64,000 nucleotides of DNA from a candidate division WOR-3 bacterium (GTDB lineage Bacteria > Hydrothermota > Tepidihabitantia > SM23-42 > JAOAFX01): assembly GCA_039802005.1 (NCBI GenBank), contig JBDRVV010000009.1, forward strand, positions 3,549 through 67,548, in the 5' to 3' direction. Shown one piece after another: positions 4,638 to 62,806 of this stretch. A program made the position numbers and the translations under genes. Position 1 is the stretch's first letter, and each line of letters starts with the position of its first letter. The notes below the pieces were generated by a model, which was not told the DNA's origin, made no database searches, and saw only the letters and a program-made list of their open reading frames with translations.

Positions 4638-4665
4638 ATTATATCAAAATCAAATGGGAAGTCAA
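4638..4665 (-). promoter_or_regulatory. Sigma70-like promoter TTGACT-N16-TATAAT
   Basis: Read directly; upstream of kinase start 4619. Confidence 0.65.
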
Positions 4666-4726
4666 GAAATGTAAATTTTAGTAAAAATTTGCTTAAAAGT
4701 TTAAATCTTGAAATGATTTTTCGTAT

Positions 4727-6079
4727 TTACTCCTTCTTCAATCCGTACTTTTCCATTTTATTATATAATGTTACACGATTGATACCCAGGACCTGGGCTG
4801 TCTTCTTTATATTCCAATTATAAATTCTTAGCACATTTAAAATATGCTCTTTTTCCATTGTATCAAGGCGTAAATCCTTATTGGTAAACTGGGGAATTAA
4901 AAATTTATCAACTAAATTTTTGGGCAGGTCTTTTTTTCCTATCTCCCTGCCTTTTGTTACTACTACCGCATGTTCAATAACATTCTCAAGCTCACGGACA
5001 TTACCGGGCCAATCGTAAGATAACAACAACTCCATCGCATCCGAACTGATTCCCGAAATATCTTTTTTATTTTCTAAATTGAATTTTTTCAAAAAGTGTT
5101 CTAAGAGAAGTGGAATATCTTCTTTTCTTTCGCGCAAAGGAGGAATTTCTATTGTAATAACATTTAATCGGTAATACAGATCTTCCCTGAAAGTTCCTTC
5201 CCGTATCATTTCTTCAAGTTTCTTATTTGTCGCAGCAATCACCCTTGTATCTACTTTAATGAGCTCTTTACCGCCAACCCTGCGGAATTCGCGCTCCTGC
5301 AAGAATCTTAAAAGGTCAACCTGCGTTTTAAGGCTGATATCGCCAATCTCATCAAGAAAAAGAGTCCCCCGGTCTGCCATTTCAATTCTACCTTTATGCT
5401 GGCTTAAAGCACCGGTAAACGCACCCTTTTCATAACCAAATAACTCCGCTTCAAGAAGTGTCTCTGGCATTGCCCCACAGGCAGTTGCAACAAAAGGGCC
5501 TTTACTGCGTGGACCTAAATTATGGATTGCCCTTGCGACAAGTTCTTTTCCAGTTCCACTTTCACCTCTGATAAGAACAGTTGACCTTGTTGGTGCTACG
5601 GTCTTTATCAATTCAAAAATTTTTTGCATCTTTGGACTCTTACCTATCAAATCCTCTAATCTAAATCGTTTTTCAAGCTCTCTGCGTAGCAGGATGTTCT
5701 CCTTAATAATTTCCTGATGTTCAAGTAATTTTTTAAGAATGATATTTATCTCTTCAGGATTGAATGGTTTCATAACATAGTCTACTGCACCTTCTTTCAT
5801 TGCAACAACCGCACTATCAACTGTTCCATGTCCGGTAATTATTATCACCGGCAAATCCGGTCTTATCTTATGAATTCTCCGCAATGTCTCAATCCCGTCA
5901 ATCTTCGGCATCTTCAAATCCACAAGGACAACATCCCAATCATTAATTTCTATCTGTTCAAGGGCTATTAGACCATCTTCAACCGCCTTTACTTGATATC
6001 CCAAATTATCAAGCCATTCACTGAGTGCGTCTCTAACAATTTTTTCATCATCAATAATCAAAATTTTATATTTCTTCAT
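4727..6079 (-). CDS. Sigma54-dependent response regulator (NtrC/AtoC family)
   Basis: REC + AAA+ (GESGTGKE, GAFTGA, LFLDEIG, WPGNVREL) + C-terminal HTH. Confidence 0.95.
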   Translation of the reverse strand: MKKYKILIIDDEKIVRDALSEWLDNLGYQVKAVEDGLIALEQIEINDWDVVLVDLKMPKIDGIETLRRIHKIRPDLPVIIITGHGTVDSAVVAMKEGAVDYVMKPFNPEEINIILKKLLEHQEIIKENILLRRELEKRFRLEDLIGKSPKMQKIFELIKTVAPTRSTVLIRGESGTGKELVARAIHNLGPRSKGPFVATACGAMPETLLEAELFGYEKGAFTGALSQHKGRIEMADRGTLFLDEIGDISLKTQVDLLRFLQEREFRRVGGKELIKVDTRVIAATNKKLEEMIREGTFREDLYYRLNVITIEIPPLRERKEDIPLLLEHFLKKFNLENKKDISGISSDAMELLLSYDWPGNVRELENVIEHAVVVTKGREIGKKDLPKNLVDKFLIPQFTNKDLRLDTMEKEHILNVLRIYNWNIKKTAQVLGINRVTLYNKMEKYGLKKE

Positions 6080-6090
6080 AGTGATTAAAA

Positions 6091-6118
6091 ATTATACACA
6101 TTTAGAATAAAAAATCAA
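6091..6118 (-). promoter_or_regulatory. Sigma70-like promoter TTGATT-N16-TATAAT
   Basis: Read directly; -10 box lies 11 nt from the ATG at 6079. Confidence 0.6.
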
Positions 6119-6136
6119 TACCCTTCTATATCACTC

Positions 6137-6164
6137 TTGATTTTCTGCGATTAATATATATAAT
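6137..6164 (+). promoter_or_regulatory. Sigma70-like promoter TTGATT-N16-TATAAT for hdrCBA
   Basis: Read directly; divergent from the previous promoter; GGAGG RBS follows. Confidence 0.6.
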
Positions 6165-6185
6165 TTAAACACTTATGGAGGCAAA

Positions 6186-7528: not shown

Positions 7529-7540
7529 AGGGAGTGTAAA

Positions 7541-9652: not shown

Positions 9653-9798
9653 AAAAATCTTTTTTTATTTACCCAATATCTAACGCTTTTGATATATCTA
9701 TTAGGCAATAGAGAATTTAGTCACTATTACCATATTAATTAATATCCATAAACCACCGACTATTTTCTGAGGTAAAGAGGTATCTACTCGATTAAAAT

Positions 9799-10074: not shown

Positions 10075-10084
10075 AAAATGGTTA

Positions 10085-10112
10085 TTGACATTTATATAAT
10101 TTTTAGTATAAT
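10085..10112 (+). promoter_or_regulatory. Sigma70-like promoter TTGACA-N16-TATAAT
   Basis: Perfect hexamers read directly. Confidence 0.75.
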
Positions 10113-10130
10113 TGACATACTGGGGGCTAA

Positions 10131-10973
10131 ATGATTTTATTTTTACTTATTGCCAGCATAGGATATGAATATATGCTCGTTGATCCGGTTGCAGAGAGGG
10201 TAGGAATGGGTTATGCCGTCGTTGGTGACGGACATAATATTTTTTATAATCCAGCAGGAATTATACTTAATACAGGAGTAAGTTATTCATTCTCTTATCT
10301 GAATTATATTGGGGGGACTCACTTTGGTCATGTTGATTACGAAAGCAATGTATTGGGTGCAGGTATTAGATACTTCTATAGTGGGAAAATGAAAAAAACC
10401 GATGCCTCTGGGCAGGAGTTAGGAGATTTCAGCACAAATTTTATTGATTTTAATATCGGTAAGGGCTTTACAATGAGCAATATTCTATTAGGTGTTTCGG
10501 GAAAATTCGTGTATGAACTTATTGACACATTATATTCTTTGGGCTTTGGCATTGATATGGGAGCCCTATACCTTCTGTCTCAAGAAAATATCCAGCTGGG
10601 TCTCGCAGTAAAAAATCTTGGGACGGGTATAAAGCCATTTATTAACGATAAAGAATTATTACCTTATGAAATCAATTTGGGTCTCATTAAAAAATTTAAT
10701 CAGGGCTGGATTGGACTTGATATTGTTAAACCCGCCCTATTAAATCTTGGTTTTAGAATTGGTGGTGGATATGATCTCACAGAATACTTAACATTCCGTA
10801 TCTCATACAATAGCCTTTTGTCTCAGGTTAAAACTGATACAGGTCTTGATTTTCTTGCAGGAATTACGCTGGGGTTTGGAGTAAAAAAGAATAAAATAAA
10901 TGTCAATTACTCATATACCCCATACTTTAATCTGGGACAGGCACATAGATTAACAATAAGAATAGGAGGTTAA
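10131..10973 (+). CDS. PorV/PorQ-like (UPF0164) outer-membrane beta-barrel protein
   Basis: Short signal peptide, GMGYA...IFYNPAG motif, alternating beta-strands, C-terminal YSY..Y..LG..HR.T. Confidence 0.75.
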   Translation: MILFLLIASIGYEYMLVDPVAERVGMGYAVVGDGHNIFYNPAGIILNTGVSYSFSYLNYIGGTHFGHVDYESNVLGAGIRYFYSGKMKKTDASGQELGDFSTNFIDFNIGKGFTMSNILLGVSGKFVYELIDTLYSLGFGIDMGALYLLSQENIQLGLAVKNLGTGIKPFINDKELLPYEINLGLIKKFNQGWIGLDIVKPALLNLGFRIGGGYDLTEYLTFRISYNSLLSQVKTDTGLDFLAGITLGFGVKKNKINVNYSYTPYFNLGQAHRLTIRIGG

Positions 10974-10974
10974 A

Positions 10975-11964: not shown

Positions 11965-12011
11965 CAAACAAAGAAGTAGAAAATTAACGCCGATAAGAAT
12001 AACCAAATTTT

Positions 12012-12965: not shown

Positions 12966-12983
12966 TAAAAATATTTCCTCAAA

Positions 12984-16442: not shown

Positions 16443-16452
16443 GCAGAAATCC

Positions 16453-17286
16453 ATGCCTCTACCCTATCTCAGCAAATTCCTTGGGAAATTGACCGGTATT
16501 TTTAGTCCAGCAAAAAAACCCGATATATCCAATCTGGAACAAGTTTTACTTGAATCCGATGTCGGAGTAAAATATACAAATATGTTGCTCGAAAAAATTA
16601 ATTATAATCAGGCAAAACTTAAAGAGGAAATCCTAAAACTGATTAATATCAAACCACCAAATTTAAATCCAACAAAGCCTTTAATCATAATAATTTGCGG
16701 TGTAAACGGCTCGGGCAAAACGACGACCGTGGCAAAACTTGCCTATATGTATCAAAAAAAAGGCAACGTCCTTCTGGTCAGTGCGGATACATATAGGGAT
16801 GCTGCATCAGAACAACTTGATATCTGGGCACAGAAAGTCGGTGTTGAAATCATTCGTTCCCAGAAAGGGCAAGATGCGGGTGCCGTCGTCTATGATGGAC
16901 TAAATAAGGCAATATCAAGAAATAATGATACAGTCTTGATTGATACTGCCGGAAGATTACATACCCGAACCGACCTTATGGAAGAATTAAAAAAAATCAA
17001 AAGGGTTGTAACCAAACTCAAACCTTCAGGTCCTGATCTTTCCCTTTTGACTATTGATGCCACACTGGGTCAGAACTCCATTCAGCAGGCAAAGATATTT
17101 ACCCAGGAACTGGGAATCAATGGCTTGATTTTAACCAAATTTGATGGCACCGCAAAAGGTGGGGCAATAATTCCTATATGTGCAGAATTAAAAATCCCGG
17201 TGCTTTACCTGGGTGTCGGCGAAAAAATTGAAGACCTTATTGAATTCAAACCCGAAGAATTCGTTGAAGCAATGTTTGCTGACTAA
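16453..17286 (+). CDS. ftsY: Signal recognition particle receptor FtsY (short form)
   Basis: GVNGSGKTTT, DTAGR, TKFDGTAKGG; follows smc. Confidence 0.95.
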   Translation: MPLPYLSKFLGKLTGIFSPAKKPDISNLEQVLLESDVGVKYTNMLLEKINYNQAKLKEEILKLINIKPPNLNPTKPLIIIICGVNGSGKTTTVAKLAYMYQKKGNVLLVSADTYRDAASEQLDIWAQKVGVEIIRSQKGQDAGAVVYDGLNKAISRNNDTVLIDTAGRLHTRTDLMEELKKIKRVVTKLKPSGPDLSLLTIDATLGQNSIQQAKIFTQELGINGLILTKFDGTAKGGAIIPICAELKIPVLYLGVGEKIEDLIEFKPEEFVEAMFAD

Positions 17287-17978
17287 TTTGAATAAATATT
17301 AAATTTATTAATATGTTTCTCAAAAAATTCTTCCACTTTTTTTCTCAACAAAAAATAAAGTATTAACGCAATTAAAAATCCAACTCCCCCCATAACCCAA
17401 CCCTTTATTCCCATTGCCATAATCCGATCCCCAGCCACTACATAAATCAGTATCCCGGGGATTCGGCAGAACCCAATAATAACAATCAAAACTTTCAAGG
17501 GGATCATAGTCAGTCCTGCCAGATAAAAAAGTCCATCACCGATAGGGTTGGGAAATATTGCTAAAAATAATACCAGCGGCAAGCCTTTTTTAGTTATCAT
17601 TTGCTCTAAACGCGATGTTCCTTCTTCGGCAAATAGATAAAGTATCTTTTTACCAAAAACCCGTGCTACAAGCATCGCTAAAAAACCGCCAACTATTACT
17701 GCAAGCCATGATACTAAAAATCCTTTCAATGGGCCAAACAACATGCCAGATGCAATATTTAAAACCTGTCCCGGAATCGGCGCGAAGAAAATCTGGAAAA
17801 TATAAAGCAGGAAATATATAAAATAGGAAACAAGACCATAGCGCTGAATTGCATCTCTAACTGCCTCCGGATCATTTACGATAAAATTGAAATTTTTTAC
17901 AAAAATAATTGATACCAAAACAATTATGGTAAAAAAAACAATTGTTCCGCAAAAACCCAAAAATCGTTTTATTTTCAT
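17283..17978 (-). CDS. TVP38/TMEM64 (VTT/DedA-related) membrane protein
   Basis: FAPIPGQVL...SGMLFG, FPNPIGD motifs, multiple TM segments. Confidence 0.85.
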   Translation of the reverse strand: MKIKRFLGFCGTIVFFTIIVLVSIIFVKNFNFIVNDPEAVRDAIQRYGLVSYFIYFLLYIFQIFFAPIPGQVLNIASGMLFGPLKGFLVSWLAVIVGGFLAMLVARVFGKKILYLFAEEGTSRLEQMITKKGLPLVLFLAIFPNPIGDGLFYLAGLTMIPLKVLIVIIGFCRIPGILIYVVAGDRIMAMGIKGWVMGGVGFLIALILYFLLRKKVEEFFEKHINKFNIYSN

Positions 17979-17985: not shown

Positions 17986-18013
17986 ATTATATTTATTTTG
18001 TATTTTCATTCAA
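17986..18013 (-). promoter_or_regulatory. Sigma70-like promoter TTGAAT-N16-TATAAT, probably leaderless
   Basis: -10 box 7 nt from ATG at 17978. Confidence 0.6.
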
Positions 18014-18290: not shown

Positions 18291-18318
18291 TTGACACACA
18301 AAAGAATTTTAATATACT
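18291..18318 (+). promoter_or_regulatory. Sigma70-like promoter TTGACA-N16-TATACT, leaderless
   Basis: -10 box 6 nt before ATG at 18325; no SD sequence. Confidence 0.7.
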
Positions 18319-18324: not shown

Positions 18325-20931
18325 ATGAAGATATTTATAGATTACCTAAAACAAAAGTTACATTCGGGTTGGGTTATTGCCAACCATATCCTGGTTTCAT
18401 TCCATGTTGCCTTTATCTCTTCTGTTTTGTGCATTCCAAAAGGTTTGCAGGGAAAGGAGGTATTAGGATTTGTCTTTACAAGTGTTGATACAATAATCTC
18501 GGCACTCTTCTGGTTTATAAGTTTCCATACCGGGATCGCTATCCACGAGATGGGGCACTATTTGAGGGCGGTTAAATTAAATGCCCTGAATGAAAATATT
18601 TTGCCGGCAGCCCAAAAAAGATATAAAAGCCCAGGATTAAGTAAACTATTCTGGTATTTAGAAATGTTCATCAAAATACCTTATGGAAAATTCACGGGAG
18701 TAAAGAAAGAAGGATTGACATATTATCCAGAAGCCCCATTCAATCTAAGCGTTGCGGCGGCAGGTCCTGAAATCAGTGGTAATATGGCACTTGTGATGTT
18801 GCCGATTGCAGTAATCCTGCTTGCAATTGGACTCATTGGCGACCATATCATTCTCACCTATATTGGCAGATTGTGCCTTGGTATCGGAACTGTAGGATTA
18901 CTTGATTTTCTACTCGCTGACCCCGGAAAATATCGCGAATTCAAAGAAAGGGAAGCAAGGGCGAAAATGAAGGCTGAAAAGATTGAAATTTCTAAAGAAA
19001 GCTGGCTAAATAAGGTCAAACAGGTAAAAGAAATGATGATGACAAAAAGAATTCAGGAAGTCACACTTCCGGATGGTGAAAAACTCCGTGCGCCCTGGCA
19101 ATATCGGAATTGTGGGATGGGTGGTAGGCATACTGAGAAAGAATATCCCGAGAGTAACATAAGTATGCAGGAGATGATGTTTGTTCCACTTTGTGCCAAA
19201 AATTACGAAGAAGCGCAGATGATTACGGTTGCGCTCCAGACACGATTGAAAGAGATTATTGAGAAGAGCGAAGGTGCACGGGTTATGGGAATCGGTCTGG
19301 AAGGTGGACTCGCACCTTATATAAGTAAGGATCCCAATGACATTGTACCAGAACAACGAATGTGGAGAATGGCGGTTCAGGCAATAAGAGACATTGGTTA
19401 TAAACCGGGTGAAGATATCGCCCTTGCCTTTGACCCCGCGGTAAGTGAATTGAGCAATGCATATCGCGAGGAATTCAATCAGCCGGATGCAGTGGGAATG
19501 TATTATTTCTGGCGTGGAGAAGAGAAAGTCGTTATGTCGCGCGACCAGATTGTTGACTTATACAAGAAGACTGTTCAAGAACTTCCTATTGTTATGTTAG
19601 AGGATGGATTTGCAGAAGATGATTATGAAGGATGGCGTCTTGTGATGAAGGAACTTGGCGATAAAATCTTTATTGTTGGTGATGACATCGTAACCACAAA
19701 AGACTCTACAATTGAAAAATGTGCAGATGACGGATTGATGAATGTTTCTCTCATAAAGGCAAATCAGATCGGAACCCTCTCTGAAACTTTAATCGCAATG
19801 CTTGTTGCGTTAGGCAAAGGGATGGATTTACTTGTATCTCATCGTTCTAAATCACCTAATGATGATATGGAGGCACAGATTGCACTTTCCGCAAATACAA
19901 TGGGATTAAAAGCAGGTGGTGGTGCTAACACCGAGCGCCTCTTCAAATATGGCTCAATTACTAAAATAATGAAAGAACTTCAAAGCGCGCGCGATAAAAA
20001 GTTTGATGAAAAAGAGTATGGTGATGTAAGGAATTTCTTAAACAATCTCGTTATAACAGATATTATTGCCTATGAGGAGCCAACCAATGCAGGTATTCCA
20101 AGTGTTGGTGTTAATATTTATGCCGGTATTCCAGGCAGCGAAGCATACAAAAAGATACTAAAAATGACGGGTTCAACGCCATTAGGTACATCGGCTGGAA
20201 CCGGTGAAGCAATCCATCTTGTTGACAGTACAATTGAACGCTCTTCTCTGACTGATAAATATTCAGATTTATTTACTCCCCAACCTGATAAAACATTTAA
20301 ATTCAAGAAAGGGCTCAAAGAATCTGATATCCTTGCGAAGAATGATTCTGAATTGACAGCGCTCTGGCAGAAAGTGCAACGTTATGAAGGGAAAGGCTGT
20401 CTCAATGCGGTCAATAATATCCTGACAATAATTGCCCCGCACTTTATCGGCAAAAAGGTTTCGGAATTTAAGTCAATATCAATGATTGATAAGATATTGT
20501 TAAACCTTGAAAAAGAGACCGCAATCCTCAGAGGTAAACTCGAAAAGAACGCTTCCCAGGATGAAGTCATTGAAATTATGCAGAGAAAAGGAAATCTCGG
20601 AATGAATGCGATACTCTCAGTTTCACTGGCGATGGGCAGGATGATTGCCCATATTCAAGGAAAAGAACTCTGGCAGTTATTAAGAGAAGAAATGAAGCAG
20701 TTAATGGCAAAAGTAATCGCGGCAAATGGCGGATGGGAAATCATAAAGGATGTAGTTCCCCAAGAAAAAGCATCTGCAATACAATCAGCCAAAGAAAATC
20801 TTGTGTCTGTTTTACAAAAAGAATTAACATTTGAAAACCTTGTAAAATGTCTCCAGAATGTTGAAAAAAGGTTGAAAAAAGAAAACAAAAAACTCTATCA
20901 GGCTTTAAGAGAGCAGGCACAGATTTATTGA
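18325..20931 (+). CDS. M50 (site-2 protease)-like membrane domain fused to a circularly permuted enolase
   Basis: aa ~1-205: TM helices, HEMGH, AAAGP; aa ~250-552: enolase barrel motifs (GGRH, QE, EGG, FDPAVSE, LEDG, VGDD, IKANQIG, SHRS, LKAG, ERLFKY); aa ~576-790: enolase N-domain motifs (GTSAG..EA, RYEGKG..AV.N, LGMNAILSVSLA). Confidence 0.88.
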   Translation: MKIFIDYLKQKLHSGWVIANHILVSFHVAFISSVLCIPKGLQGKEVLGFVFTSVDTIISALFWFISFHTGIAIHEMGHYLRAVKLNALNENILPAAQKRYKSPGLSKLFWYLEMFIKIPYGKFTGVKKEGLTYYPEAPFNLSVAAAGPEISGNMALVMLPIAVILLAIGLIGDHIILTYIGRLCLGIGTVGLLDFLLADPGKYREFKEREARAKMKAEKIEISKESWLNKVKQVKEMMMTKRIQEVTLPDGEKLRAPWQYRNCGMGGRHTEKEYPESNISMQEMMFVPLCAKNYEEAQMITVALQTRLKEIIEKSEGARVMGIGLEGGLAPYISKDPNDIVPEQRMWRMAVQAIRDIGYKPGEDIALAFDPAVSELSNAYREEFNQPDAVGMYYFWRGEEKVVMSRDQIVDLYKKTVQELPIVMLEDGFAEDDYEGWRLVMKELGDKIFIVGDDIVTTKDSTIEKCADDGLMNVSLIKANQIGTLSETLIAMLVALGKGMDLLVSHRSKSPNDDMEAQIALSANTMGLKAGGGANTERLFKYGSITKIMKELQSARDKKFDEKEYGDVRNFLNNLVITDIIAYEEPTNAGIPSVGVNIYAGIPGSEAYKKILKMTGSTPLGTSAGTGEAIHLVDSTIERSSLTDKYSDLFTPQPDKTFKFKKGLKESDILAKNDSELTALWQKVQRYEGKGCLNAVNNILTIIAPHFIGKKVSEFKSISMIDKILLNLEKETAILRGKLEKNASQDEVIEIMQRKGNLGMNAILSVSLAMGRMIAHIQGKELWQLLREEMKQLMAKVIAANGGWEIIKDVVPQEKASAIQSAKENLVSVLQKELTFENLVKCLQNVEKRLKKENKKLYQALREQAQIY

Positions 20932-21040: not shown

Positions 21041-21068
21041 TTGACTTTACACTAAAATTGATTAATCT
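21041..21068 (+). promoter_or_regulatory. Sigma70-like promoter TTGACT-N16-TAATCT, leaderless
   Basis: -10 box 6 nt before ATG at 21075. Confidence 0.55.
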
Positions 21069-21074: not shown

Positions 21075-22742
21075 ATGTCTATTACAGCAAAAACATTCTG
21101 GGATATTGAAAAAGAAAAGACAACTGTAATATATGCAATTTTTGGAGTTCTTGTATTTTTTTATTTTTTTTCTTTTTTTATCATCTGGACTATATTTAAA
21201 CTTTTAATTTATGTAAGGCTTCAACTGGAAAATCCTCATATCCGTTTCCATCTCTTCGGCTCGGATACATTAATCGTATTTATTATTGCCCTCATACTTG
21301 CAATCATGCACTGGTTTTACACAAATCGTAATGTTGTTGAAAAAATTTTAAAATTGCTTAATGCGAAGCCACCGGATAAAAACGACCGTTATCATTATGT
21401 CTTCAAAAATATTGTGGAAGAAATCAGCATTGCTGCAGGTAAAATAGCGGTTGAACCTTATATCGTTCCAACTATAGCAATGAATGCATTTGCACTCCAG
21501 GATATTTATGGTAGAAATGTCATAGGTGTAACCGAAGGGCTCATATCAAGATTAAATCGAGATGAACTCCAGGCAGTCCTTGCCCATGAAATGGCACATA
21601 TTGTATCAAATGATTCATTATTAACAACTGTAGCAAGTTCACTATTTGGAGTATATAATGAAATGCTCAACGGCATTGTAAATAATATCAGCAAAATGAA
21701 TCGGGCTGACGAAGATATTCCTTTTAGTAAAAGCCAAAAGAATGCCGCTGCGGCCGGTTTGGTCTTCCTACCTGTATTTATCTGTCTTTTAATAATGAGT
21801 TTTTTATCCCAACTTCTATATGTTTTTATCTCGCGTGAAAAAGAATATCGGGCAGATGTGAACGCAATAAAATATACCAGAAATCCTTTGAGTCTCGCCC
21901 GTGCCCTTTATAAAATAGCAACCCATTATCGTGGGACTGCAAGTTATCTGGCACCAATTTTTATCTTAAGTCCTGAGGCAAATCCACTTGAAGAGCGAGA
22001 AGATTTTTTTGCAAACTTATTCTCCACCCACCCCCCTTTCACAAAAAGGCTTCAACTAATCCTTGACCAGGCGCACGCTGACTTAAGCCAGATTACCGAA
22101 GAGATTTATAAAATACCACGAAGTGAAGAACAGACAAAACCAACCAAGTCTGAAATTTTTATAAAAAAAGAAGAAAGATGGCTTGGACCTTATACATTGC
22201 TTCAACTCCAATCTTTAGACTTTTTAACCCCTGATACCGAGGTTAAAATTAAAGGTACCGAACAGATAGTAAAGGCAGAATCAATTCCTGCATTAGACCA
22301 TTATTTTAAAATAAAAAATACTCCTCTGTGGAAGATGCGACGTATATGCCCGGTATGTAATGAATGGTTAATAGTCCAGGAATATGAGGGATTGTATGTC
22401 TGGCGTTGTGCATTTTGCGATGGGCTACTTGTGGAAAGAGAAAAACTGCCGAGAATAATTGTGCGCGAAGAAAAAGAATTTTCTGAAGAGACCATACGTA
22501 TCGCATCTTTTATTCTTGCTGAAGCCAAAAAGAAAAAACCAAATTTCAAATTGCTCATAGAGACCGTTAACAAGAGAAAATGCCCAAAATGTGGTAAACC
22601 GATGGTGCGTAAATTGTATAGTTATGTATACCATATTGAGATTGACGAGTGTAATGAATGTAATTTAATCTGGTTTGATAAAAATGAACTTGAGATATTA
22701 CAATGTTTAATTGAAATGGAGGAAAAAGATGGAAAAGGATAA
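21075..22742 (+). CDS. HtpX-like M48 zinc metalloprotease with C-terminal GYF-like motif and two zinc ribbons
   Basis: TM segments, NAFA, HEMAH, SREKEYRAD, STHPP; WLGPY; CPVC..CAFCDG and CPKC..CNEC..WFD. Confidence 0.85.
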   Translation: MSITAKTFWDIEKEKTTVIYAIFGVLVFFYFFSFFIIWTIFKLLIYVRLQLENPHIRFHLFGSDTLIVFIIALILAIMHWFYTNRNVVEKILKLLNAKPPDKNDRYHYVFKNIVEEISIAAGKIAVEPYIVPTIAMNAFALQDIYGRNVIGVTEGLISRLNRDELQAVLAHEMAHIVSNDSLLTTVASSLFGVYNEMLNGIVNNISKMNRADEDIPFSKSQKNAAAAGLVFLPVFICLLIMSFLSQLLYVFISREKEYRADVNAIKYTRNPLSLARALYKIATHYRGTASYLAPIFILSPEANPLEEREDFFANLFSTHPPFTKRLQLILDQAHADLSQITEEIYKIPRSEEQTKPTKSEIFIKKEERWLGPYTLLQLQSLDFLTPDTEVKIKGTEQIVKAESIPALDHYFKIKNTPLWKMRRICPVCNEWLIVQEYEGLYVWRCAFCDGLLVEREKLPRIIVREEKEFSEETIRIASFILAEAKKKKPNFKLLIETVNKRKCPKCGKPMVRKLYSYVYHIEIDECNECNLIWFDKNELEILQCLIEMEEKDGKG

Positions 22743-24675: not shown

Positions 24676-24703
24676 TTGACATTCTTTTTTTTTTAATTAT
24701 AAT
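24676..24703 (+). promoter_or_regulatory. Sigma70-like promoter TTGACA-N16-TATAAT for tRNA
   Basis: Perfect hexamers 7 nt before the tRNA 5' end. Confidence 0.8.
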
Positions 24704-24710
24704 ATGCTAT

Positions 24711-24782
<72 letters not shown>

Positions 24783-24803
24783 TTTAAATAAAAAGGGGTT
24801 TTG

Positions 24804-29764: not shown

Positions 29765-29792
29765 ATTATATTCATAATTTGAGATTTGTCAA
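29765..29792 (-). promoter_or_regulatory. Sigma70-like promoter TTGACA-N16-TATAAT for the predicted selenoprotein operon
   Basis: Perfect hexamers read directly. Confidence 0.75.
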
Positions 29793-35954: not shown

Positions 35955-35982
35955 ATTATAGTCAATATTTTTTATATGTCAA
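35955..35982 (-). promoter_or_regulatory. Sigma70-like promoter TTGACA-N16-TATAAT
   Basis: Perfect hexamers read directly. Confidence 0.75.
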
Positions 35983-37537: not shown

Positions 37538-38761
37538 TTATGCTTTTGGTTCAACAACCCTGCCAATGAAAAGTATATTACCGGTATTTTTTTCTTGTAT
37601 CACAAAAATAAATGGATGATCAGCACGAAACACAGGAATTCTTGGACCCACTGAAGTAATACCAACCACTACACCGGTTGCTGCTGCAGCTTCAGTCCCT
37701 TCTTCGTTGACATCAACATAAGCTTGATGGACAACTGCACGGATATATAAATTTTTTGTGCCATCTATACCGGAAAAGTCGCAGTGAGGGGAAAATGCGT
37801 TGGGCATACCAAGTTGTGATAAGTTGGGTGTAAGGGTATATCTCGTTTTGAAAGTAAACTTGGGCAAATATACTTCAACCCTTGTCTCAGACAAAAGTTT
37901 TTTCCACTCTTCAAATTTTTCTTGAGATAACTCTTTCTCAACTAATTTCAAATCATTCTTGCGCGGCAGTAATATGACCATTGATAAATCATTTCCTTCG
38001 TAAGGTAATTCAAGAATTTGCAGTTCATCTGTCTCAGCATAATTAAATCTGGTCTCCGGGTCTATTCTCTTCATCATCGGTACTTTTATTGTCTTTGACT
38101 CGTTAACCCAGAAGTCTTCTTCGGTTGTTAATGATTTATCAAATTGCTTGAGCCACTGCCCTTTAAAATATATCGCATTGGTAATCACCAATCTTGATTG
38201 TTGGTCAATTGAACCTGGTGGGAAGAGGTCTTTTATTTTTTGATTGGTCTTATCTTCTACCCATTTGTTGATTATCTGGCGCGTTTGTTCGGTTGCTCCT
38301 ATAAAATCCACATTCCGTGCATAACCATCGTAATATTTTTGAATCGTCTTCAAATATTCAGGTAAAAATGGGTAGTCTTTTTGAATCCATAAGGCATTAG
38401 CAATATGTAATCTATATTTTGCATTCTTTTTATTAATTTGTTTATAAAGGGATAGAAAAGTTTCCCGACGATTTTTCTCATCCAGAGGGAATTTAAAGAC
38501 TTCATACATCTCACCTTTAACCCAACCCTTTGCCCCTTCAAAGACCATCGCTATTGCCATTGTAATACTGAATGGTGAATAAAAAATATTCCCGGTTTCA
38601 TTTTCAGTCAAATTCTTATAAAGATTAAAACAGAAACGATTATTACCCTGCACAATTTCATCAAATTTCTGTGGCACTTCAGCCTTACCACCCATAGCGT
38701 ATACAAATGTAAATAGCATTAAACCAATCAGAAAATATTTCATAATATAGCCTCCTTGCAA
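37538..38761 (-). CDS. Secreted serpin (serine protease inhibitor); start may be MKYF at 38743
   Basis: NIFYSPFSI, TNAIYFKGQW, EEGTEAAAAT hinge, FRADHPF. Confidence 0.95.
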   Translation of the reverse strand: MQGGYIMKYFLIGLMLFTFVYAMGGKAEVPQKFDEIVQGNNRFCFNLYKNLTENETGNIFYSPFSITMAIAMVFEGAKGWVKGEMYEVFKFPLDEKNRRETFLSLYKQINKKNAKYRLHIANALWIQKDYPFLPEYLKTIQKYYDGYARNVDFIGATEQTRQIINKWVEDKTNQKIKDLFPPGSIDQQSRLVITNAIYFKGQWLKQFDKSLTTEEDFWVNESKTIKVPMMKRIDPETRFNYAETDELQILELPYEGNDLSMVILLPRKNDLKLVEKELSQEKFEEWKKLLSETRVEVYLPKFTFKTRYTLTPNLSQLGMPNAFSPHCDFSGIDGTKNLYIRAVVHQAYVDVNEEGTEAAAATGVVVGITSVGPRIPVFRADHPFIFVIQEKNTGNILFIGRVVEPKA

Positions 38762-38768: not shown

Positions 38769-38796
38769 ATTATCCATATTTTTAAAATAAAGTCAA
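38769..38796 (-). promoter_or_regulatory. Sigma70-like promoter TTGACT-N16-GATAAT
   Basis: Read directly upstream of serpin. Confidence 0.55.
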
Positions 38797-42694: not shown

Positions 42695-42722
42695 ATATTA
42701 ATCATTCAACTAAGAAAGTCAA
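42695..42722 (-). promoter_or_regulatory. Sigma70-like promoter TTGACT-N16-TAATAT, leaderless
   Basis: -10 box 7 nt from ATG 42687. Confidence 0.6.
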
Positions 42723-42802: not shown

Positions 42803-42830
42803 TTGACATATTTATATGATTAACTATAAT
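42803..42830 (+). promoter_or_regulatory. Sigma70-like promoter TTGACA-N16-TATAAT, leaderless
   Basis: Perfect hexamers; ATG 5 nt after the -10 box; no SD. Confidence 0.8.
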
Positions 42831-42835: not shown

Positions 42836-44326
42836 ATGGATTTTAAATTTGAAAAATATAAGAAATTTATACCCTGTATTTTAATTACAATCGGTTCCAT
42901 TTTCCGTCTCGCACAATATATCTTCAACCGCTCTCTCACTGAAGGTGAAGCACCATTGGCAATGAATATTATAGAACGCTCTTATCAAACATTGATTAAA
43001 CCCCTTGATTATGTCCAGGCAGCGCCGATCGGTTTTCTTTATATAGAGAAATTGTGTGTGAATATATTTGGCAATAATGAATATGCATTACGAATCTTCC
43101 CGCTAATTGTTGGCATTTTAGCCCTTTTCCTTTTTTACAAAATTTTAAAAATAATTGGCGACTATAAAATCACACTTTTTGGTCTTGCCTTTTTTGTCTT
43201 AAATGATTATTTAATCTATTTTTCTTCGGAAGTAAAACCATATTCAAGCGATGTATTCTTTTCTCTATTACTAATCTTTCTTGTATTAATTACAATTAGA
43301 GATAACCTGAATATTGCAATGTTGATAATCTATGGGATTATCGGTGCCATCACCATCTGGCTTTCTTTTCCTGCAGTCTTTGTATTCATTGGCACTGGCA
43401 TCATCCTGTTAATTTACATAATAAAAAATAAAGATTACAAAGCATTCTTGATTATTATGTTAGCTGGAGCGATTGGTTTTTTAAGCCTTACTTCAAATTA
43501 TTTTCTTTGTCTCCGCCACTATACAACACATAAAGAATTACTGGATTTCTGGCAAAATGATTTTATTCCATTCCCACCTAAGTCATTAGCTGAAGTATAT
43601 CAAATAATTTATATGTTGGTCAGAATTTTTAAAAATCCTGGGGGTTTTTCTATTTACGATATCTTCCTTGCAATATTATTTTTCATAATTGGTATTATTT
43701 ATTTTTATAGAAACAAAAAAATCGCCTCATTAATCATTATTATTCCCTTTATTATTACTATCCTTTGTTCTATTCTTAGACTCTATCCATTTGAAGGTCG
43801 GGTGATACTATTTATCGCACCAATTTTATCAATCTTTGTTAGTGCTGGTGTTACCTTAATGTACAACATAGTAAAAAAGAGTTCAACACCAATTGCAACA
43901 TCAATCTCTTTGATATTGTTTATTTACCCAGCATTGAATTCATGCTATCATCTTATCAAACCCCGTGCACCCGAAGAGTTAAGATCGGTGTTGGAATACC
44001 TCTTAAAGAATAGGAAAGAACAGGATAAAATTTATGTATATTATGGGGCAGTAAATGCATTCAGATATTATCAGACCAGATTTTCAGATTTTCACGAGGA
44101 TTATATATTGGGGATTGAATCGCGGAATGATTGGACTGGATATTATCGCGATTTGGAAAAATTAAAAGGCAACAGAAGGGTCTGGTTTATATTTTCACAC
44201 ATCGCTACACATTTAGGGGGTAATGAAGAGAAAATATTTTTAAGTTATTTAAATCTAATCGGCAATCAGGTTGCATCATTTACCACATCAGGTGCATCTG
44301 CATATCTTTATGATTTAAGCAAGTAA
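42836..44326 (+). CDS. Polytopic membrane glycosyltransferase (GT-C, ArnT/PMT-like)
   Basis: RSL..GE, ALRIFPL, SEVKPYS motif, many TM helices. Confidence 0.75.
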   Translation: MDFKFEKYKKFIPCILITIGSIFRLAQYIFNRSLTEGEAPLAMNIIERSYQTLIKPLDYVQAAPIGFLYIEKLCVNIFGNNEYALRIFPLIVGILALFLFYKILKIIGDYKITLFGLAFFVLNDYLIYFSSEVKPYSSDVFFSLLLIFLVLITIRDNLNIAMLIIYGIIGAITIWLSFPAVFVFIGTGIILLIYIIKNKDYKAFLIIMLAGAIGFLSLTSNYFLCLRHYTTHKELLDFWQNDFIPFPPKSLAEVYQIIYMLVRIFKNPGGFSIYDIFLAILFFIIGIIYFYRNKKIASLIIIIPFIITILCSILRLYPFEGRVILFIAPILSIFVSAGVTLMYNIVKKSSTPIATSISLILFIYPALNSCYHLIKPRAPEELRSVLEYLLKNRKEQDKIYVYYGAVNAFRYYQTRFSDFHEDYILGIESRNDWTGYYRDLEKLKGNRRVWFIFSHIATHLGGNEEKIFLSYLNLIGNQVASFTTSGASAYLYDLSK

Positions 44327-44663: not shown

Positions 44664-44691
44664 TTGACATTTATGTTAATTTGAATAGAAT
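44664..44691 (+). promoter_or_regulatory. Sigma70-like promoter TTGACA-N16-TAGAAT, leaderless
   Basis: -10 box 5 nt before ATG 44697. Confidence 0.7.
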
Positions 44692-47800: not shown

Positions 47801-47828
47801 ATAATAAAGATATTCTGCCAAAAATCAA
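47801..47828 (-). promoter_or_regulatory. Sigma70-like promoter TTGATT-N16-TATTAT, leaderless onto GTG
   Basis: -10 box 5 nt from GTG 47795. Confidence 0.55.
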
Positions 47829-49523: not shown

Positions 49524-50569
49524 TGATAGAATTTATAACAATTCTTATATTGTTAACGGTAGATACTCAATATCAATCAGAGCCCTGTGCATATAAATTT
49601 TCCGGTGATTATCATTTAAAATCAGGTGATACACTAAGAGAAGATGTCTCGGTGAGCAGTGGGAATGCTATGATTGATGGTGTGATTGATGGCGACCTTG
49701 CGGTGATGGGTGGTTCAGTAACGGTTAATGGGACCATAGATGGTGATGTTGCAGTATTTGGTGGTGAGATTGAAAATTATGGTAAGATCACCGGTGATGC
49801 GGCAGTTGCTGGTGGCTCGGTAAAAAATAAAGGAACAATTGATGGCGACATTGCTGTTGCTGGCGGGACAGTCATTCTTGATTCAGGTTCGGTCGTTATG
49901 GGTGATATAGCAATCGTTGGTGGGAGTGTTGACCGCTCTGACTTCGCAGTTGTTGAAGGACAGATAACTACCGTTGATATCGGTAAGATTGACAAAATTA
50001 TGCCAAGGCTCAGCAGGTTGTTACGATTAAGGCAAAATCCGTGCATATTGGGATCTGGATTGCACATAGTTACATCAATCGCATTTATCATTGTAATGTA
50101 TATTTTGAATCTCCTCTTGCTTTTGATTTTCCCTAAAGCGATAGAAAAAATAGGCAACAAAATAAAAAAGAATATCTGGGCTTGTATCGCTATCGGCATC
50201 GGTATTGAAATACTTTTTGTCCCATTGATTCTACTCTTTGTTATTTCCATTATAGGCATTCCTATAATCCCAGCCTTTGTCCTCGCACTATTCATTGGTA
50301 TGCTCTTTGGTATCTCTGGATTCTCGGTTGTCCTTGGCGAAAGGATATGTACAGGATTGAACTGGAATATAGATAATAAAATCGGTCTGTTTTCAACCGG
50401 CTGGCTCGGGATAATGATTATACTGATAATTGGGATACTACTAAAAAATGCAGGCTTTTTTGGAACTTTGATATGGCTCCTGGGGATTGTAATAGTTTAT
50501 GTTGCAGTAACGATTGGAATTGGTGGTGTCCTTTATGCACTGGTAAAAAAAGATAAAGAAATTATTTAG
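49523..50569 (+). CDS. Paralogous beta-helix repeat plus multi-TM protein
   Basis: IDGDLAVMGG/IDGDVAVFGG repeats; ISIIGIP TM domain. Confidence 0.8.
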   Translation: MIEFITILILLTVDTQYQSEPCAYKFSGDYHLKSGDTLREDVSVSSGNAMIDGVIDGDLAVMGGSVTVNGTIDGDVAVFGGEIENYGKITGDAAVAGGSVKNKGTIDGDIAVAGGTVILDSGSVVMGDIAIVGGSVDRSDFAVVEGQITTVDIGKIDKIMPRLSRLLRLRQNPCILGSGLHIVTSIAFIIVMYILNLLLLLIFPKAIEKIGNKIKKNIWACIAIGIGIEILFVPLILLFVISIIGIPIIPAFVLALFIGMLFGISGFSVVLGERICTGLNWNIDNKIGLFSTGWLGIMIILIIGILLKNAGFFGTLIWLLGIVIVYVAVTIGIGGVLYALVKKDKEII

Positions 50570-52772
50570 AAAATCTGAACCCTTTTTCTTTAAATAATTT
50601 TATACAGATATCCACAATCTCGGGTTCAAATTTGATTCCCCTTCCTTTGCTTATATCATTAAGTGCCTGGTCAAGACCCAATGCCTCACGATATGGACGA
50701 TGGGACATCATTGCCTCAACAATATCTGCGACACAAAGTATCTTTGCCTCAATCATAATCTCATCTCCTTTCAAACCCTTTGGATAACCAGAACCGTCCA
50801 TTTTTTCATGGTGTTGAAGAACAATCTCAGGTATGGGCCAGGGGAAATTTACCGGAGCAAGAATCTCATAACCAACCTGGCTATGTGTTTTTATTATCTC
50901 AAATTCTGCCGGTGTCAATGTGGTGGGTTTGGCAAGTATCTCTGCAGGCACATATATCTTACCAACATCATGGAGGAGAGAGGCGATACGAAGATAATTT
51001 ATAATTTCCTTTGAAAGACCCATTTCTTCAGCAATGGTACAGGTCAATTCCGCAACACGGCGCTGATGGCCTGCAGTATAAGGGTCGCGTTTTTCTACTG
51101 CTGAGGCAAGGGCGGTTACTGCACCTTCAAGTAGTCTATTGAGTTGTTCATAACTTTTTTTCAATTCCTGGTGTGCATTATATGCATCACTAACATCCCT
51201 TGCCACACCAAGAATCCCGATTGGTTTGCCTTCTTTATCTCTTATAAATTTAAAAGTCGTCTGTGCCCATATTTCCATTCCATCACGCTTTTTAATTTGT
51301 AGCAATAATGAGCGGTATCTATTTTTGTTTAAAGTAGGTATGCTCTCAATTTCTAATTCTTCTTTCAACACCTTCATTGCATCTGAGTAGGAATGTCGGG
51401 TTAATAGTTTTTCAACCCCGTTATTTAACAATTCATCCGTATCATAACCAATTATCTTTATAGAAGGGCTCATAAATGTAAACTTCAAATCCATATCAAG
51501 GATAAAAATAACCTCAGTTATATTCTCTGTTATTAGTTGCAGCCGTTCCTGGTTCTTTATTAATTCACTTTTCGTTGTCTCTTGTTCAGAAATATCCCGC
51601 GCGATACCACAAAGTCCCCAAATCTCACCTTTTGCATTATAGAGAGGAACCTTAATCGTATGGAACTTAAATCTTTTTCCTCTTATATTTCTTTCCGAAA
51701 AATTTTCAATAACCTCTCCGTTTAGAACTCTCCGGTCTTCGGAAATAATTGTATTAGCAGTATCCGGACCAAAAATATCAAAATCAGTTTTACCAATTAT
51801 TTCTTCGGTTTTCATTCCCAATAATTCAGCCGTACATTTATTGACCATAACATATCTCAATGCCTTATTTTTTATGAATATACAATCCTTTGCTGACTCA
51901 AATATTGTCCGGAACAATTCTTCATTCTCTTTTAACTGCCCCTGTATTCTTTTTTTCTCAGTAATATCCCTTACTAATGCAAGAAGATATACACCATCGG
52001 GCAATTCAAATCTTCTCAAACTTACTTCAGTATCAAATAACGAACCATCAATTCTTCTGTGCTGCCATTCAAAAAACATAGGTTTCCCGTAAAGTGCTTC
52101 CTTCATCATCTGTATTGCCTTTTCATTTGAATTACTTCCGTCGGGTTGGAACGCAGGAGAAAGTTCGTAAGGGTATTTCCCAATTATGTCTTTTTCATCG
52201 CAACCAAAAATCTCAAGTGCTCTTTTATTACATTCTACAAATTTATAATCCTTTAGAATCATAATACCATCACCCGCACTGTCAAATAGCGTCTGATATT
52301 TGGTTGATATTCCAAGTAACTTTTGTAAAAAATGTGCGCTGTAAGTCTGCAAAACTGACTTGTCTATATGCAATGAAGGCCTATTTGTCTGTATCGAACC
52401 ACTAACGATATCACTTATAAAATCATTCAATTTATGAGCGAATTGTTCTTTTTGCATAGTAGTATTCATAACGGCATCCGCCCCGAGATTTTTTAAATAC
52501 TCCTGCCCTTTTTCATCAGTAACACCAGGAACACAAATTACCATTGGGATATCTTTTGTCTTATCATTTGTTTTTACCCGATAACAGAATTGCAATCCAT
52601 CAAGAACCGGCTGTAAAATACCGCTGATTATTAAATCAAACCCATTTTCTAAAAGAAGTTTAAATGCATCAACACAATTGTTGACTTCTACTATATTGTG
52701 CCCCTTCTCTTTTAAAATTTCCTTCAATAAAATTCTATTTTCTGCCTTATCGTCCAGAACTAAAATCTTCAT
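50562..52772 (-). CDS. HD-GYP phosphodiesterase with degenerate REC and three PAS domains
   Basis: RDPYTAGH, LHDVGK, HHEKMDGSGYP; PAS/PAC motifs; REC phosphosite reads ISGIL. Confidence 0.9.
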   Translation of the reverse strand: MKILVLDDKAENRILLKEILKEKGHNIVEVNNCVDAFKLLLENGFDLIISGILQPVLDGLQFCYRVKTNDKTKDIPMVICVPGVTDEKGQEYLKNLGADAVMNTTMQKEQFAHKLNDFISDIVSGSIQTNRPSLHIDKSVLQTYSAHFLQKLLGISTKYQTLFDSAGDGIMILKDYKFVECNKRALEIFGCDEKDIIGKYPYELSPAFQPDGSNSNEKAIQMMKEALYGKPMFFEWQHRRIDGSLFDTEVSLRRFELPDGVYLLALVRDITEKKRIQGQLKENEELFRTIFESAKDCIFIKNKALRYVMVNKCTAELLGMKTEEIIGKTDFDIFGPDTANTIISEDRRVLNGEVIENFSERNIRGKRFKFHTIKVPLYNAKGEIWGLCGIARDISEQETTKSELIKNQERLQLITENITEVIFILDMDLKFTFMSPSIKIIGYDTDELLNNGVEKLLTRHSYSDAMKVLKEELEIESIPTLNKNRYRSLLLQIKKRDGMEIWAQTTFKFIRDKEGKPIGILGVARDVSDAYNAHQELKKSYEQLNRLLEGAVTALASAVEKRDPYTAGHQRRVAELTCTIAEEMGLSKEIINYLRIASLLHDVGKIYVPAEILAKPTTLTPAEFEIIKTHSQVGYEILAPVNFPWPIPEIVLQHHEKMDGSGYPKGLKGDEIMIEAKILCVADIVEAMMSHRPYREALGLDQALNDISKGRGIKFEPEIVDICIKLFKEKGFRFSK

Positions 52773-52817
52773 AAAAAAACCTCCTTCAGGGGCCATTTCT
52801 AATTTACAAATATAAAT

Positions 52818-52845
52818 AGTATAATCTATTAGGTTTAAAAGTCAA
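52818..52845 (-). promoter_or_regulatory. Sigma70-like promoter TTGACT-N16-TATACT
   Basis: Read directly. Confidence 0.65.
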
Positions 52846-54746: not shown

Positions 54747-54776
54747 AATAACTCCTTTTTGTATTATAGATAAATT

Positions 54777-56428: not shown

Positions 56429-56444
56429 TCAGAACCCCCTTGTC

Positions 56445-57773: not shown

Positions 57774-57831
57774 AAAAAACCCAGATACCTAAAATTTTTC
57801 AGGCAATGCAGGATTGAATCTTTAGGCATTT

Positions 57832-61348: not shown

Positions 61349-61351
61349 TTT

Positions 61352-62503
61352 CTATTCTTCAACAATTAAATCAAGAATACGATTTGCTATCTCCCATTTC
61401 GTCATTGTTCCCAATTCTGTAATTTTTCCATTCTTTGTTAATATGGTTACAGAAGTAGTTTCTTTCCCGATAACCGAAACTGGATTGGAAATAATATAAT
61501 CGAGTCCCTTTTCCTTCAATTTTTCCCGGGCTCTTTTTAATACATTTTTATCCTCTACAGAAAAACCGATAAATGTTTTATTTTTCTTATAACTTCTCAT
61601 TGATTGCAAAATGTCAATATTCTTTTTTAAATCCAATCTCAAAGAATCAGAGTGAATCTTTGTCTCACACAACTTTAAAGGTTTATAATCACCAACTGCA
61701 GCACTCATTATTAGAGTATCCGTCCATTCAATGTGTTTTTTCAATGTTTGCAACATTTCTTCTGATGTCCTCACCCTGAATATACCCGGCTCATCAGGCA
61801 CTGAAACGCTCGTCTGTCCAATAATCAACCTGACATCTCCATCCCTGCACTTTGCTGCCTCATACAATTCAAGTGCCATAATTCCTGAAGAACGATTTGT
61901 AATAACCCGGACCGAATCAATATCTTCTTCTGTTCTCCCACCGGTTATGAGAATCTTTTTATCGGCAAGTGTTTTGTATCCAGCAGCACAAACAATTATT
62001 TTTTTATAAATTCTATCCAATTTGGGAAATCTTCCTTTACCAACCTTGCCTGAAGCAAGCGCCCCTGAATCTGGTTCAAGAAAATAATATCCGTTTTTTT
62101 TCAGTTTTTTTAAATTATCCTGGACAATCCGGTTATTCCACATTCCTGTATCCATCGCAGGTACAAAAAGCACCGGCTTCTGAAAAGAGATTATCGTTGT
62201 AGAAAGTAAATCATCTCCTATCCCTGCTGCTGTCTTACCAATGATATTTGCGGTGGCAGGTGCAATTACTAATATGTCAGCCCAATCATTTAGTGAAATG
62301 TGTTTAATCCCCTTTGTTAGAACAAATTGGTCAATATAAACTTCGTTATCAGAAAGTGTCTGGCAGGTAAGTGGGGTAACGAATTCAAGAGCAGATTTTG
62401 TAAGTACTACCTTTACTTCGTTACCATTACGCCTCAAAAGTCTGATAAGTTCTAATGCCTTATACCCAGCAATAGAACCAGTTATTCCTAAAACGACCTT
62501 CAC
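61352..62503 (-). CDS. coaBC: Phosphopantothenoylcysteine decarboxylase/ligase
   Basis: GITGSIA, APATAN, PAM, TGG.T.E.ID.VR.ITNRSSG, AAVGDY. Confidence 0.95.
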   Translation of the reverse strand: MKVVLGITGSIAGYKALELIRLLRRNGNEVKVVLTKSALEFVTPLTCQTLSDNEVYIDQFVLTKGIKHISLNDWADILVIAPATANIIGKTAAGIGDDLLSTTIISFQKPVLFVPAMDTGMWNNRIVQDNLKKLKKNGYYFLEPDSGALASGKVGKGRFPKLDRIYKKIIVCAAGYKTLADKKILITGGRTEEDIDSVRVITNRSSGIMALELYEAAKCRDGDVRLIIGQTSVSVPDEPGIFRVRTSEEMLQTLKKHIEWTDTLIMSAAVGDYKPLKLCETKIHSDSLRLDLKKNIDILQSMRSYKKNKTFIGFSVEDKNVLKRAREKLKEKGLDYIISNPVSVIGKETTSVTILTKNGKITELGTMTKWEIANRILDLIVEE

Positions 62504-62691
62504 TCTTTATATTTATATTTTATAACACCTGCAGAACACTTAATCAATGCTTCCCTGATTGGACTAACTTTACTATCTACCAAGTGCTGTCCCTGCTCAT
62601 CCTTTATCTTTCGTGCATAAAGTGCAGCAATATTTATTGCCTTGTATTTATTTTTATAATGTTTCCAGATATTCTCTATGGGAAATATCAT
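62500..62691 (-). CDS. rpoZ: RNA polymerase omega subunit-like
   Basis: NKY.....AA..AR.I motif, size, conserved position upstream of coaBC. Confidence 0.7.
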   Translation of the reverse strand: MIFPIENIWKHYKNKYKAINIAALYARKIKDEQGQHLVDSKVSPIREALIKCSAGVIKYKYKE

Positions 62692-62778
62692 AAACCTCCT
62701 TTTTTCTCAATTATTCGTTAATCCCAGTTCAATCATGAAAAAACCTAAAGTTTTCGTTCCCTATATAAATAATATTAT

Positions 62779-62806
62779 ATTATATGGAAATAGTTATCAA
62801 TGTCAA
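62779..62806 (-). promoter_or_regulatory. Sigma70-like promoter TTGACA-N16-TATAAT
   Basis: Perfect hexamers read directly. Confidence 0.75.

Follow-up and report, generated by a model that had tools for sequence, protein, structure and literature searches.

A 16-nt spacer prevails in the consensus promoters of a candidate division WOR-3 bacterium and of its order

Introduction

The sigma70 optimum in Escherichia coli and Bacillus subtilis is a spacer of 17 nt between the −35 and −10 hexamers (TTGACA-N17±1-TATAAT). The stretch of DNA considered here, 64,000 nt of contig JBDRVV010000009.1 from a candidate division WOR-3 bacterium (assembly GCA_039802005.1), raises the question of whether the transcription machinery of some bacteria is set to a different length. 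In a previous reading of this stretch from its letters alone (the sequence-only reading), 17 promoters were listed, all with 16 nt between the hexamers, and it was suggested that the primary sigma factor or the RNA polymerase of this lineage may have a shifted spacing preference. The stretch, called the window throughout, corresponds to C9:3549-67548 of an assembly of 2.54 Mb in 62 contigs with 37% G+C.

No bacterium with a sharp peak at 16 in its primary-sigma promoters is known to us, and it is, to our knowledge, not yet settled what in the holoenzyme gauges spacer length. Among the papers searched, none joins WOR-3 with promoter and sigma factor. In 49 species with mapped transcription start sites, 17 bp is the predominant spacer in every one (PMC12641261, 2025). 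A preprint of 2026 gives 17 bp as the median of every genome and finds 17 enriched in 60 of 67 phyla and none significantly below baseline, the share of 17 bp being lowest in Caldisericota; it concludes that "the canonical spacer holds across the bacterial domain" (bioRxiv 10.64898/2026.09.23.753901).

Results

The window was scanned exhaustively for pairs of hexamers at spacers of 15–19 nt, with both zero and one mismatch; a perfect pair is defined here as TTGACA-Nx-TATAAT with 0 mismatches, and N16 denotes a spacer of 16 nt. The spacing read at the 17 listed sites proved exact in all of them (7 on the + strand, 10 on the − strand), as did the statement that six of them are perfect pairs (10085, 24676, 29765, 35955, 42803 and 62779, all N16). 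The scan itself yielded six pairs without mismatch, all at N16, against a chance expectation, from base composition, of about 0.04 perfect sites in 64 kb for each spacer length. Seven pairs carry one mismatch: four are N16, and N15, N17 and N19 are represented once each, the N15 pair overlapping the promoter at 62779 and the N17 and N19 pairs lying inside genes. Among the spacers scanned, no intergenic site of the window showed comparable quality with another spacing. An independent consensus scanner ranked the same sites first. Three of the sites are weak by hexamer score (21041, with 4 mismatches; 42695 and 47801, with 3 each), and each of these has a start codon 5–7 nt past the −10 box; site 21041 was accepted because of this start-codon geometry and not because of its hexamer score.

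Across the whole genome, perfect pairs number 192 at N16, 15 at N17 and 0 at both N15 and N18. Spacers of 12–14 and 19–22 nt give 1–7 perfect pairs each, and the seven matches at "N21" are N16 promoters with an overlapping TATAA. The reversed pattern, used as a control, matches once in the genome. The worry that sites found by eye might reflect selection bias was thus unfounded, and the suggested shift in the spacing preference of sigma or polymerase is supported, as genome-wide counts peak at 16 and not at 17, at a 16:17 ratio of about 13:1. One-mismatch pairs behave alike (337 at N16 and 75 at N17, with 35–78 at other spacings). When sites were chosen blindly with respect to the −35 box, as TATAAT followed after 5–6 nt by an ATG opening an open reading frame (ORF) of at least 100 aa (n = 124), 88 of them had a −35 box (one mismatch allowed) at N16 and 7 had one at N17, no other spacing being represented. 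Promoters with weaker hexamers keep the N16:N17 preference (15:2, 26:1, 26:1 and, in a further comparison, 64:6). The spacer sequences are diverse among the N16 sites, which are therefore not a repeat, and orthologous promoters in two genera have kept the 16-nt length while the sequence of the spacer has wholly diverged. In the strong promoters of this genome the spacer is 16 in about 92% and 17 in about 7%; 15 and 18 are excluded.

All 17 sites of the window have a gene or a tRNA directly downstream in the correct orientation. The downstream genes are varied (a kinase, a ferredoxin operon, a peptidase, a serpin, mnmG, tRNA-Met), which suits promoters of the primary sigma factor. In seven of these sites (17986, 18291, 21041, 42695, 42803, 44664 and 47801) the start codon stands 5–7 nt past the −10 box. 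The same arrangement is found genome-wide: a correctly oriented ORF start lies within 300 nt of 493 of the 529 strong N16 sites, with a sharp peak of ORF starts 5–6 nt past the −10 box. Putatively leaderless genes are common: an ATG is located 5–9 nt past the −10 box in 176 of 599 strong promoters of this genome, with a mode of 5–6 nt, the corresponding figures being 7 of 129 in a genome of family f20 (WOR-3 families are designated here by f-numbers) and 18 of 122, with a mode of 8, in a genome of family f14. According to the criteria of start codon and ORF length, strong promoters with a start codon a few bases past the −10 box amount to 29% to about 40%. A gap of 5–6 nt is the geometry expected of leaderless mRNAs and can be taken as a sequence-based proxy for start sites. 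Many tRNA genes also carry perfect N16 promoters.

A logo drawn from the 529 strong N16 sites shows a −35 hexamer close to TTGACA, preceded by A or C, and a −10 hexamer close to TATAAT. The 3′ half of the spacer is A-rich and then T-rich, followed by T at −16 (0.79), a purine at −15 and two unspecific bases before TATAAT. The TG of an extended −10 element is absent in this genome (T is 0.19 at −15 and G 0.25 at −14). For comparison, the logo drawn from 713 kb of one f20 genome, in which perfect pairs number 71 at N17 and 0 at N16, reads C-TTGACA ... TTTT-R-T-G-n-TATAAT, which is the extended −10 known from Gram-positives as "TRTG". With the two logos aligned at the −35 box, the T-rich run coincides, as do the T (0.75 in both) and the purine, and "TGn" before TATAAT in f20 is replaced by "nn" in this genome. 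As the upstream landmarks keep the same distance from the −35 box and the change is confined to TGn, now nn, a base pair appears to be missing immediately 5′ of the −10 box. When the anchoring of the spacer T was assessed in the 50 N17 promoters of this genome, the −35 box was weakly favored (0.58 vs. 0.42). A genome of f14 (16:17 of 14:1 for perfect pairs and 62:34 for one mismatch) displays neither a clear TG nor the T-run.

Perfect pairs at N16, N17 and N18 were then tallied in 151 genomes of the phylum, and the same search was run on 11 Firmicutes genomes and E. coli K-12 as controls. In the own order of the bacterium, represented by seven genomes of families f1 and f2, all seven genomes prefer 16, with per-genome N16:N17:N18 counts of 176–216 : 13–24 : 0–1. 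The preference is also visible in f6, which includes Stahlbacteria (317:76:5), in f14 (446:172:38, with about 5:1 for 16 over 17 in one genus) and, less markedly, in f16 (N16:N17 of 774:553). In f5, 16 and 17 are used equally; f10 (80:163) and f13 (13:119) favor 17, and f20 is strictly 17 (24:1466:7). In f31 the counts are 3:56:56; for its individual genomes (G083, G108 and G125) they are 2:23:30, 1:16:13 and 0:17:13, so that 17 and 18 are about equally frequent and 16 is almost never used. Many WOR-3 families are intermediate, and the N16 share by family spans 0.02 to 0.92. Among the Firmicutes controls, N17 exceeds N16 in 10 of 11 genomes (for instance 42 vs. 6, 35 vs. 8 and 39 vs. 10), one Geobacillus giving 12 N16 and 9 N17; E. 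coli K-12 has 0 perfect pairs at N16 or N17.

On an RpoB tree the own class, composed of (f1, f2, (f3, f5), f6), forms one clade, the 17-preferring f13 is its sister and the f14 clade is separate. On this placement, the preference for 16 has at least two origins or has undergone several losses. Spacer preference is inherited and varies from lineage to lineage; being common to the order and different between families, it suits an inherited property of the transcription machinery.

Perfect-consensus promoters are abundant in these genomes, about 200 per 2.5 Mb in the own order and 128–237 in f20, the Firmicutes controls having 3–42. The spacing distributions are also far sharper than those of the Firmicutes controls. 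One metagenome-assembled genome (MAG) labelled "uncultured Bacteroidales" (G166, locus L012) groups with WOR-3 f14 on the RpoB tree and has an N16:N17 of 44:12; its label is probably wrong. In genome G012, a promoter-like 30-mer with an 18-bp spacer, TTGACAAAATGCTATTTTTATTGGTATAAT, occurs at six or more places on at least six contigs and is probably part of a multicopy element carrying its own promoter.

The primary sigma factor of the bacterium is a single group-1 RpoD of 522 aa that extends from region 1.2 to region 4.2, its closest relatives being those of candidate division WOR-3 MAGs (81% and 75% identity) and then of Stahlbacteria. A second gene of the sigma-70 family encodes 283 aa. RpoD has the same hexamer-reading residues as its E. 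coli counterpart (region 2.4 YATWWIRQAITRAI, region 4.2 TRERVRQIE), consistent with the unchanged hexamers. Sigma region 3.0 differs: E. coli has P-V-H455-M-I-E458, the own class has P-A-H-I-(I/L)-D, and this genome has P-A-H-I-L-D, with Asp in place of E458; the f20 counterpart is PVHMLE. The changed region 3.0 and the lost TG fit each other. At the residue of sigma region 2.2 that corresponds to E. coli Q406, f1 and f2 have G, f6 has A, and f3 and f5 have E. The clamp helices of beta′ are the docking site of sigma domain 2, and the loop at their tip has one extra residue in f1 and f2 only. Within the same order, the rpoD matches of the single-contig genome G149 come in two pieces (C1:182419-183474 and 226913-227173), about 43 kb apart and on opposite strands, which denotes a rearrangement or an assembly error.

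Several other candidates were discarded. The RpoD columns that divide the 16- from the 17-preferring sets are only scattered positions in regions 3.2 and 4.1, and they are not diagnostic, since E. coli carries the "16" state at D513. Reverse gyrase, or thermophily, was rejected as a cause, the enzyme occurring only in the 17-preferring f13 and not being found in this genome, and so was an absence of gyrase, gyrA being present throughout, whichever of 16 or 17 a lineage prefers. The spacing trait is not matched by topoisomerase content.

Discussion

We consider it probable, at roughly 0.75, that the shift is intrinsic to the polymerase, the holoenzyme of the whole order being best served by 16 bp and the sites being promoters of the primary sigma factor. 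Selection would have fixed the 16-bp spacer because the holoenzyme of this order works best with 16, not with 17. The cause may reside in the geometry of the holoenzyme, namely in how far apart, or at what angle, sigma domain 2 (on the beta′ clamp helices) and sigma domain 4 (on the beta flap) are held, and the missing base pair would belong to the stretch immediately 5′ of the −10 box, from which the TG of the extended −10 has been lost in this lineage. Candidate determinants are the P-A-H-I-L-D of sigma 3.0, the G at Q406 in sigma 2.2 and the residue inserted at the beta′ clamp-helix tip. A more specific proposal is that spacer length is a switchable trait within the phylum (16 in the own order, 17 in f20, 17–18 in f31, with at least two independent shifts to 16), caused in the own order by the coupled change of Q406 to G, the beta′ tip insertion and the remodelled sigma 3.0. 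These changes together would bring sigma domain 2 about one base pair nearer to sigma domain 4, and the remodelled sigma 3.0 would no longer read TG. We regard this coupled scheme as tentative and would sooner doubt it than rely on it.

A number of observations weigh against a polymerase-based cause. The sequence-only reading had pointed to RpoD regions 2.4, 3 and 4.2 and to the beta flap; the comparison of these was run and no simple determinant emerged. Aligned with E. coli, the sigma 3.2 linker of the own order shows no indel, and the beta flap tip helix shows no indel and no substitution common to the 16-bp users. Family f14 prefers 16 (about 5:1 in the genus mentioned above) with a canonical sigma 3.0, PVHMIE, and f5 uses 16 and 17 equally with the class-type motif. 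A residue of the beta′ zipper (E. coli P41, Ala in several 16-bp users) matched the trait perfectly on 24 genomes and was rejected on 134: when this position was read by a degenerate DNA pattern in 134 of the 151 genomes of the phylum, the N16 share ranged from 0 to 0.94 in genomes with Ala and from 0.005 to 0.83 in those with Pro, that is, without association. No feature of sigma, beta or beta′ tracks the spacing across independent lineages, and the features unique to the own order represent one evolutionary event and are hence beyond statistical test. The continuum of N16 shares from 0.02 to 0.92 could reflect something other than a fixed structural ruler. In addition, promoter function is deduced here from position, orientation and the putative leaderless geometry.

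Such a continuum is what a quantitative cellular parameter would give, and it favors the idea that an ordinary polymerase meets DNA of lower negative superhelical density, or of different twist in vivo, on which 16 bp would phase like 17. By simple arithmetic, 17 bp at a superhelical density (sigma) of −0.06 and 16 bp of relaxed DNA span almost the same twist, about 548 degrees. We nevertheless find this improbable: the distributions are very sharp, with N15 and N18 at 0, the length difference of 3.4 Å stays whatever the twist, and the occurrence of gyrA in 16- and 17-preferring lineages and of reverse gyrase only in f13, which prefers 17, does not follow the trait. Less probable still is that the optimum has remained at 17 and that a 16-bp spacer was selected to weaken perfect-hexamer promoters that bind the polymerase too tightly and hinder escape. 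The unusually many perfect pairs (about 200 per 2.5 Mb vs. 0 in E. coli K-12) speak for such a device, but promoters with weaker hexamers prefer 16 at the same ratio, which argues against it, and f20, equally rich in perfect pairs, has them at 17.

The existence of the 283-aa sigma and the strict 16–17-bp spacing of extracytoplasmic function (ECF) sigma promoters could also suggest that the sites are read not by the primary sigma but by another factor with rigid spacing, ECF-like or of group 2/3. This we judge very unlikely: TTGACA and TATAAT are the canonical hexamers and correspond to the residues conserved in regions 2.4 and 4.2 of the 522-aa RpoD, several hundred genes of diverse kinds, together with tRNAs, are served by these sites, and f6 and f3, which have no match to the second sigma, prefer 16 as well. 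As for a chance pattern, a bias of the reader, or a single promoter carried about by a dispersed repeat or a mobile cassette, the fact that the sites were initially picked by eye is outweighed by an approximately 100-fold excess over other spacings and over the reversed control; the spacers all differ, and orthologous promoters preserve length and not sequence. We give this last explanation practically no credit.

When the promoters of this genome are compared with the sigma-70/sigma-A promoters of E. coli and B. subtilis, the hexamers, the sigma residues that read them and the location just upstream of genes are the same. They differ in a mode of 16, which is within the accepted 16–18 (about 92% of the spacers are 16 and none is 18), in a far sharper distribution and in the lack of a TG extended −10. 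The "−16 region" of Gram-positives, TRTG-n-TATAAT, is the exact motif of f20. In this genome the T-rich run and the T-R are retained, with their distance from the −35 box unchanged, but there is no TG and there are only two bases between T-R and TATAAT, so that the promoter looks one base pair shorter at that point. ECF (group 4) promoters share the rigid, almost single-valued spacing; the hexamers here are TTGACA and TATAAT, not a GGAAC-like −35 and a CGT-like −10, and the sigma is a full-length group-1 protein, whereas ECF sigmas have two domains and lack domain 3.

Primary-sigma promoters of the Bacteroidota (−33 TTTG/−7 TAnnTTTG) are a lineage-specific departure from the E. coli geometry, and the Bacteroidota are part of the Fibrobacterota–Chlorobiota–Bacteroidota group, to which WOR-3 is usually assigned. 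There the hexamers differ, whereas here they are canonical and the spacing alone differs. In leaderless genes of Deinococcus-Thermus, the −10 boxes adjoin the ORFs with a gap of about 6–7 bp (PMC12340547); here a strong −35 box is also present and the commonest gap is 5–6 nt. The promoters of this genome depart from an ordinary sigma-70-type promoter only in where the spacing peaks, in how sharp the peak is and in the absence of TG, and agree with it in hexamers, sigma factor and location.

An optimum of 17 bp is taken to hold for all bacteria, and a whole order with 16 bp in more than 90% of its strong promoters contradicts that. Tools for promoter prediction and parts for synthetic biology will misjudge these genomes if they are built on 17. 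Natural pairs of enzymes (16 vs. 17) make the part that measures the spacer directly testable and, if the coupled changes are indeed responsible, would reveal the molecular ruler of promoter spacing. The very large number of perfect-consensus promoters suggests a simple control of genes, with little reliance on regulators, in these uncultured lineages.

Individual Promoters of the Window and Minor Observations

Going along the window, the first promoter (TTGACT-N16-TATAAT, 4638..4665, − strand) precedes a Cache/HAMP histidine kinase gene (2697-4619), whose ATG lies 18 nt past the −10 box behind the ribosome-binding site AAAGGAG. Two promoters of sequence TTGATT-N16-TATAAT are divergent. That at 6091..6118 (−) serves the gene of a sigma-54-activator response regulator (4727-6079), with ATG 11 nt past the −10 box, and that at 6137..6164 (+) an operon for ferredoxin and FlpD-type (heterodisulfide-reductase-like) proteins starting at 6186. 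Downstream of the perfect pair TTGACA-N16-TATAAT at 10085..10112 (+) there is a 280-aa ORF (10131-10973) with no Pfam match. The gene of a VTT-domain membrane protein (17283-17978) follows TTGAAT-N16-TATAAT at 17986..18013 (−); with its ATG at 7 nt it looks leaderless, as does the gene of an 868-aa enolase-like protein (18325-20931), whose ATG is 6 nt past the −10 box of TTGACA-N16-TATACT at 18291..18318 (+). In this protein the C-terminal barrel of enolase (residues 266-555) precedes the N-terminal domain (682-786), which indicates a permuted or otherwise atypical architecture. The weak promoter TTGACT-N16-TAATCT (21041..21068, +) stands before an M48 peptidase gene (21075-22742), with ATG 6 nt past the −10 box.

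Another perfect pair, TTGACA-N16-TATAAT at 24676..24703 (+), precedes tRNA-Met (24710/24711-24783), the mature 5′ end of which is 7–8 nt past the −10 box; for this unit (24676-24783) a primary transcript with almost no 5′ leader is predicted. The idea of leaderless tRNAs, and of life without RNase P, which came from this gene, was dropped, other tRNAs being placed 5–31 nt past the −10 box. The perfect pair at 29765..29792 (−) is followed after 59 nt by a 99-aa ORF, and that at 35955..35982 (−) by the gene of an OmpA-family protein (34085-35923) with a 31-nt leader that includes AAGGAGG. A serpin gene (37538-38761), encoding a full-length bacterial serpin (Pfam Serpin, E = 4e-126), is found behind TTGACT-N16-GATAAT at 38769..38796 (−).

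Farther along, the weak promoter TTGACT-N16-TAATAT (42695..42722, −) belongs to a Na/Pi-cotransporter-PhoU gene with ATG 7 nt past the −10 box, and the perfect pair TTGACA-N16-TATAAT at 42803..42830 (+) to a PMT_2-type glycosyltransferase gene (42836-44326), apparently leaderless with ATG at 5 nt. At 44664..44691 (+), TTGACA-N16-TAGAAT is followed by a 53-aa ORF that starts 5 nt past the −10 box. The third weak site, TTGATT-N16-TATTAT at 47801..47828 (−), has the GTG of mnmG/gidA (45921-...) 5 nt past its −10 box. TTGACT-N16-TATACT at 52818..52845 (−) precedes a gene for a protein with response-regulator, PAS and HD domains (50562-52796), and the last perfect pair, at 62779..62806 (−), has a 63-aa ORF 87 nt downstream and coaBC (61352-62503) 275 nt downstream.

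Elsewhere in the genome, four tRNA genes, Ala-TGC (C5:33848), Gln-CTG (C6:25690), Gln-TTG (C6:42323, − strand) and Pro-TGG (C14:8596), are without a consensus promoter. All four share, about 20 nt upstream, a short hairpin, GGGCAT...ATGCCC, followed by T(A/G)TAAC; a loose pattern for the hairpin and this box occurs 16 times in the genome.

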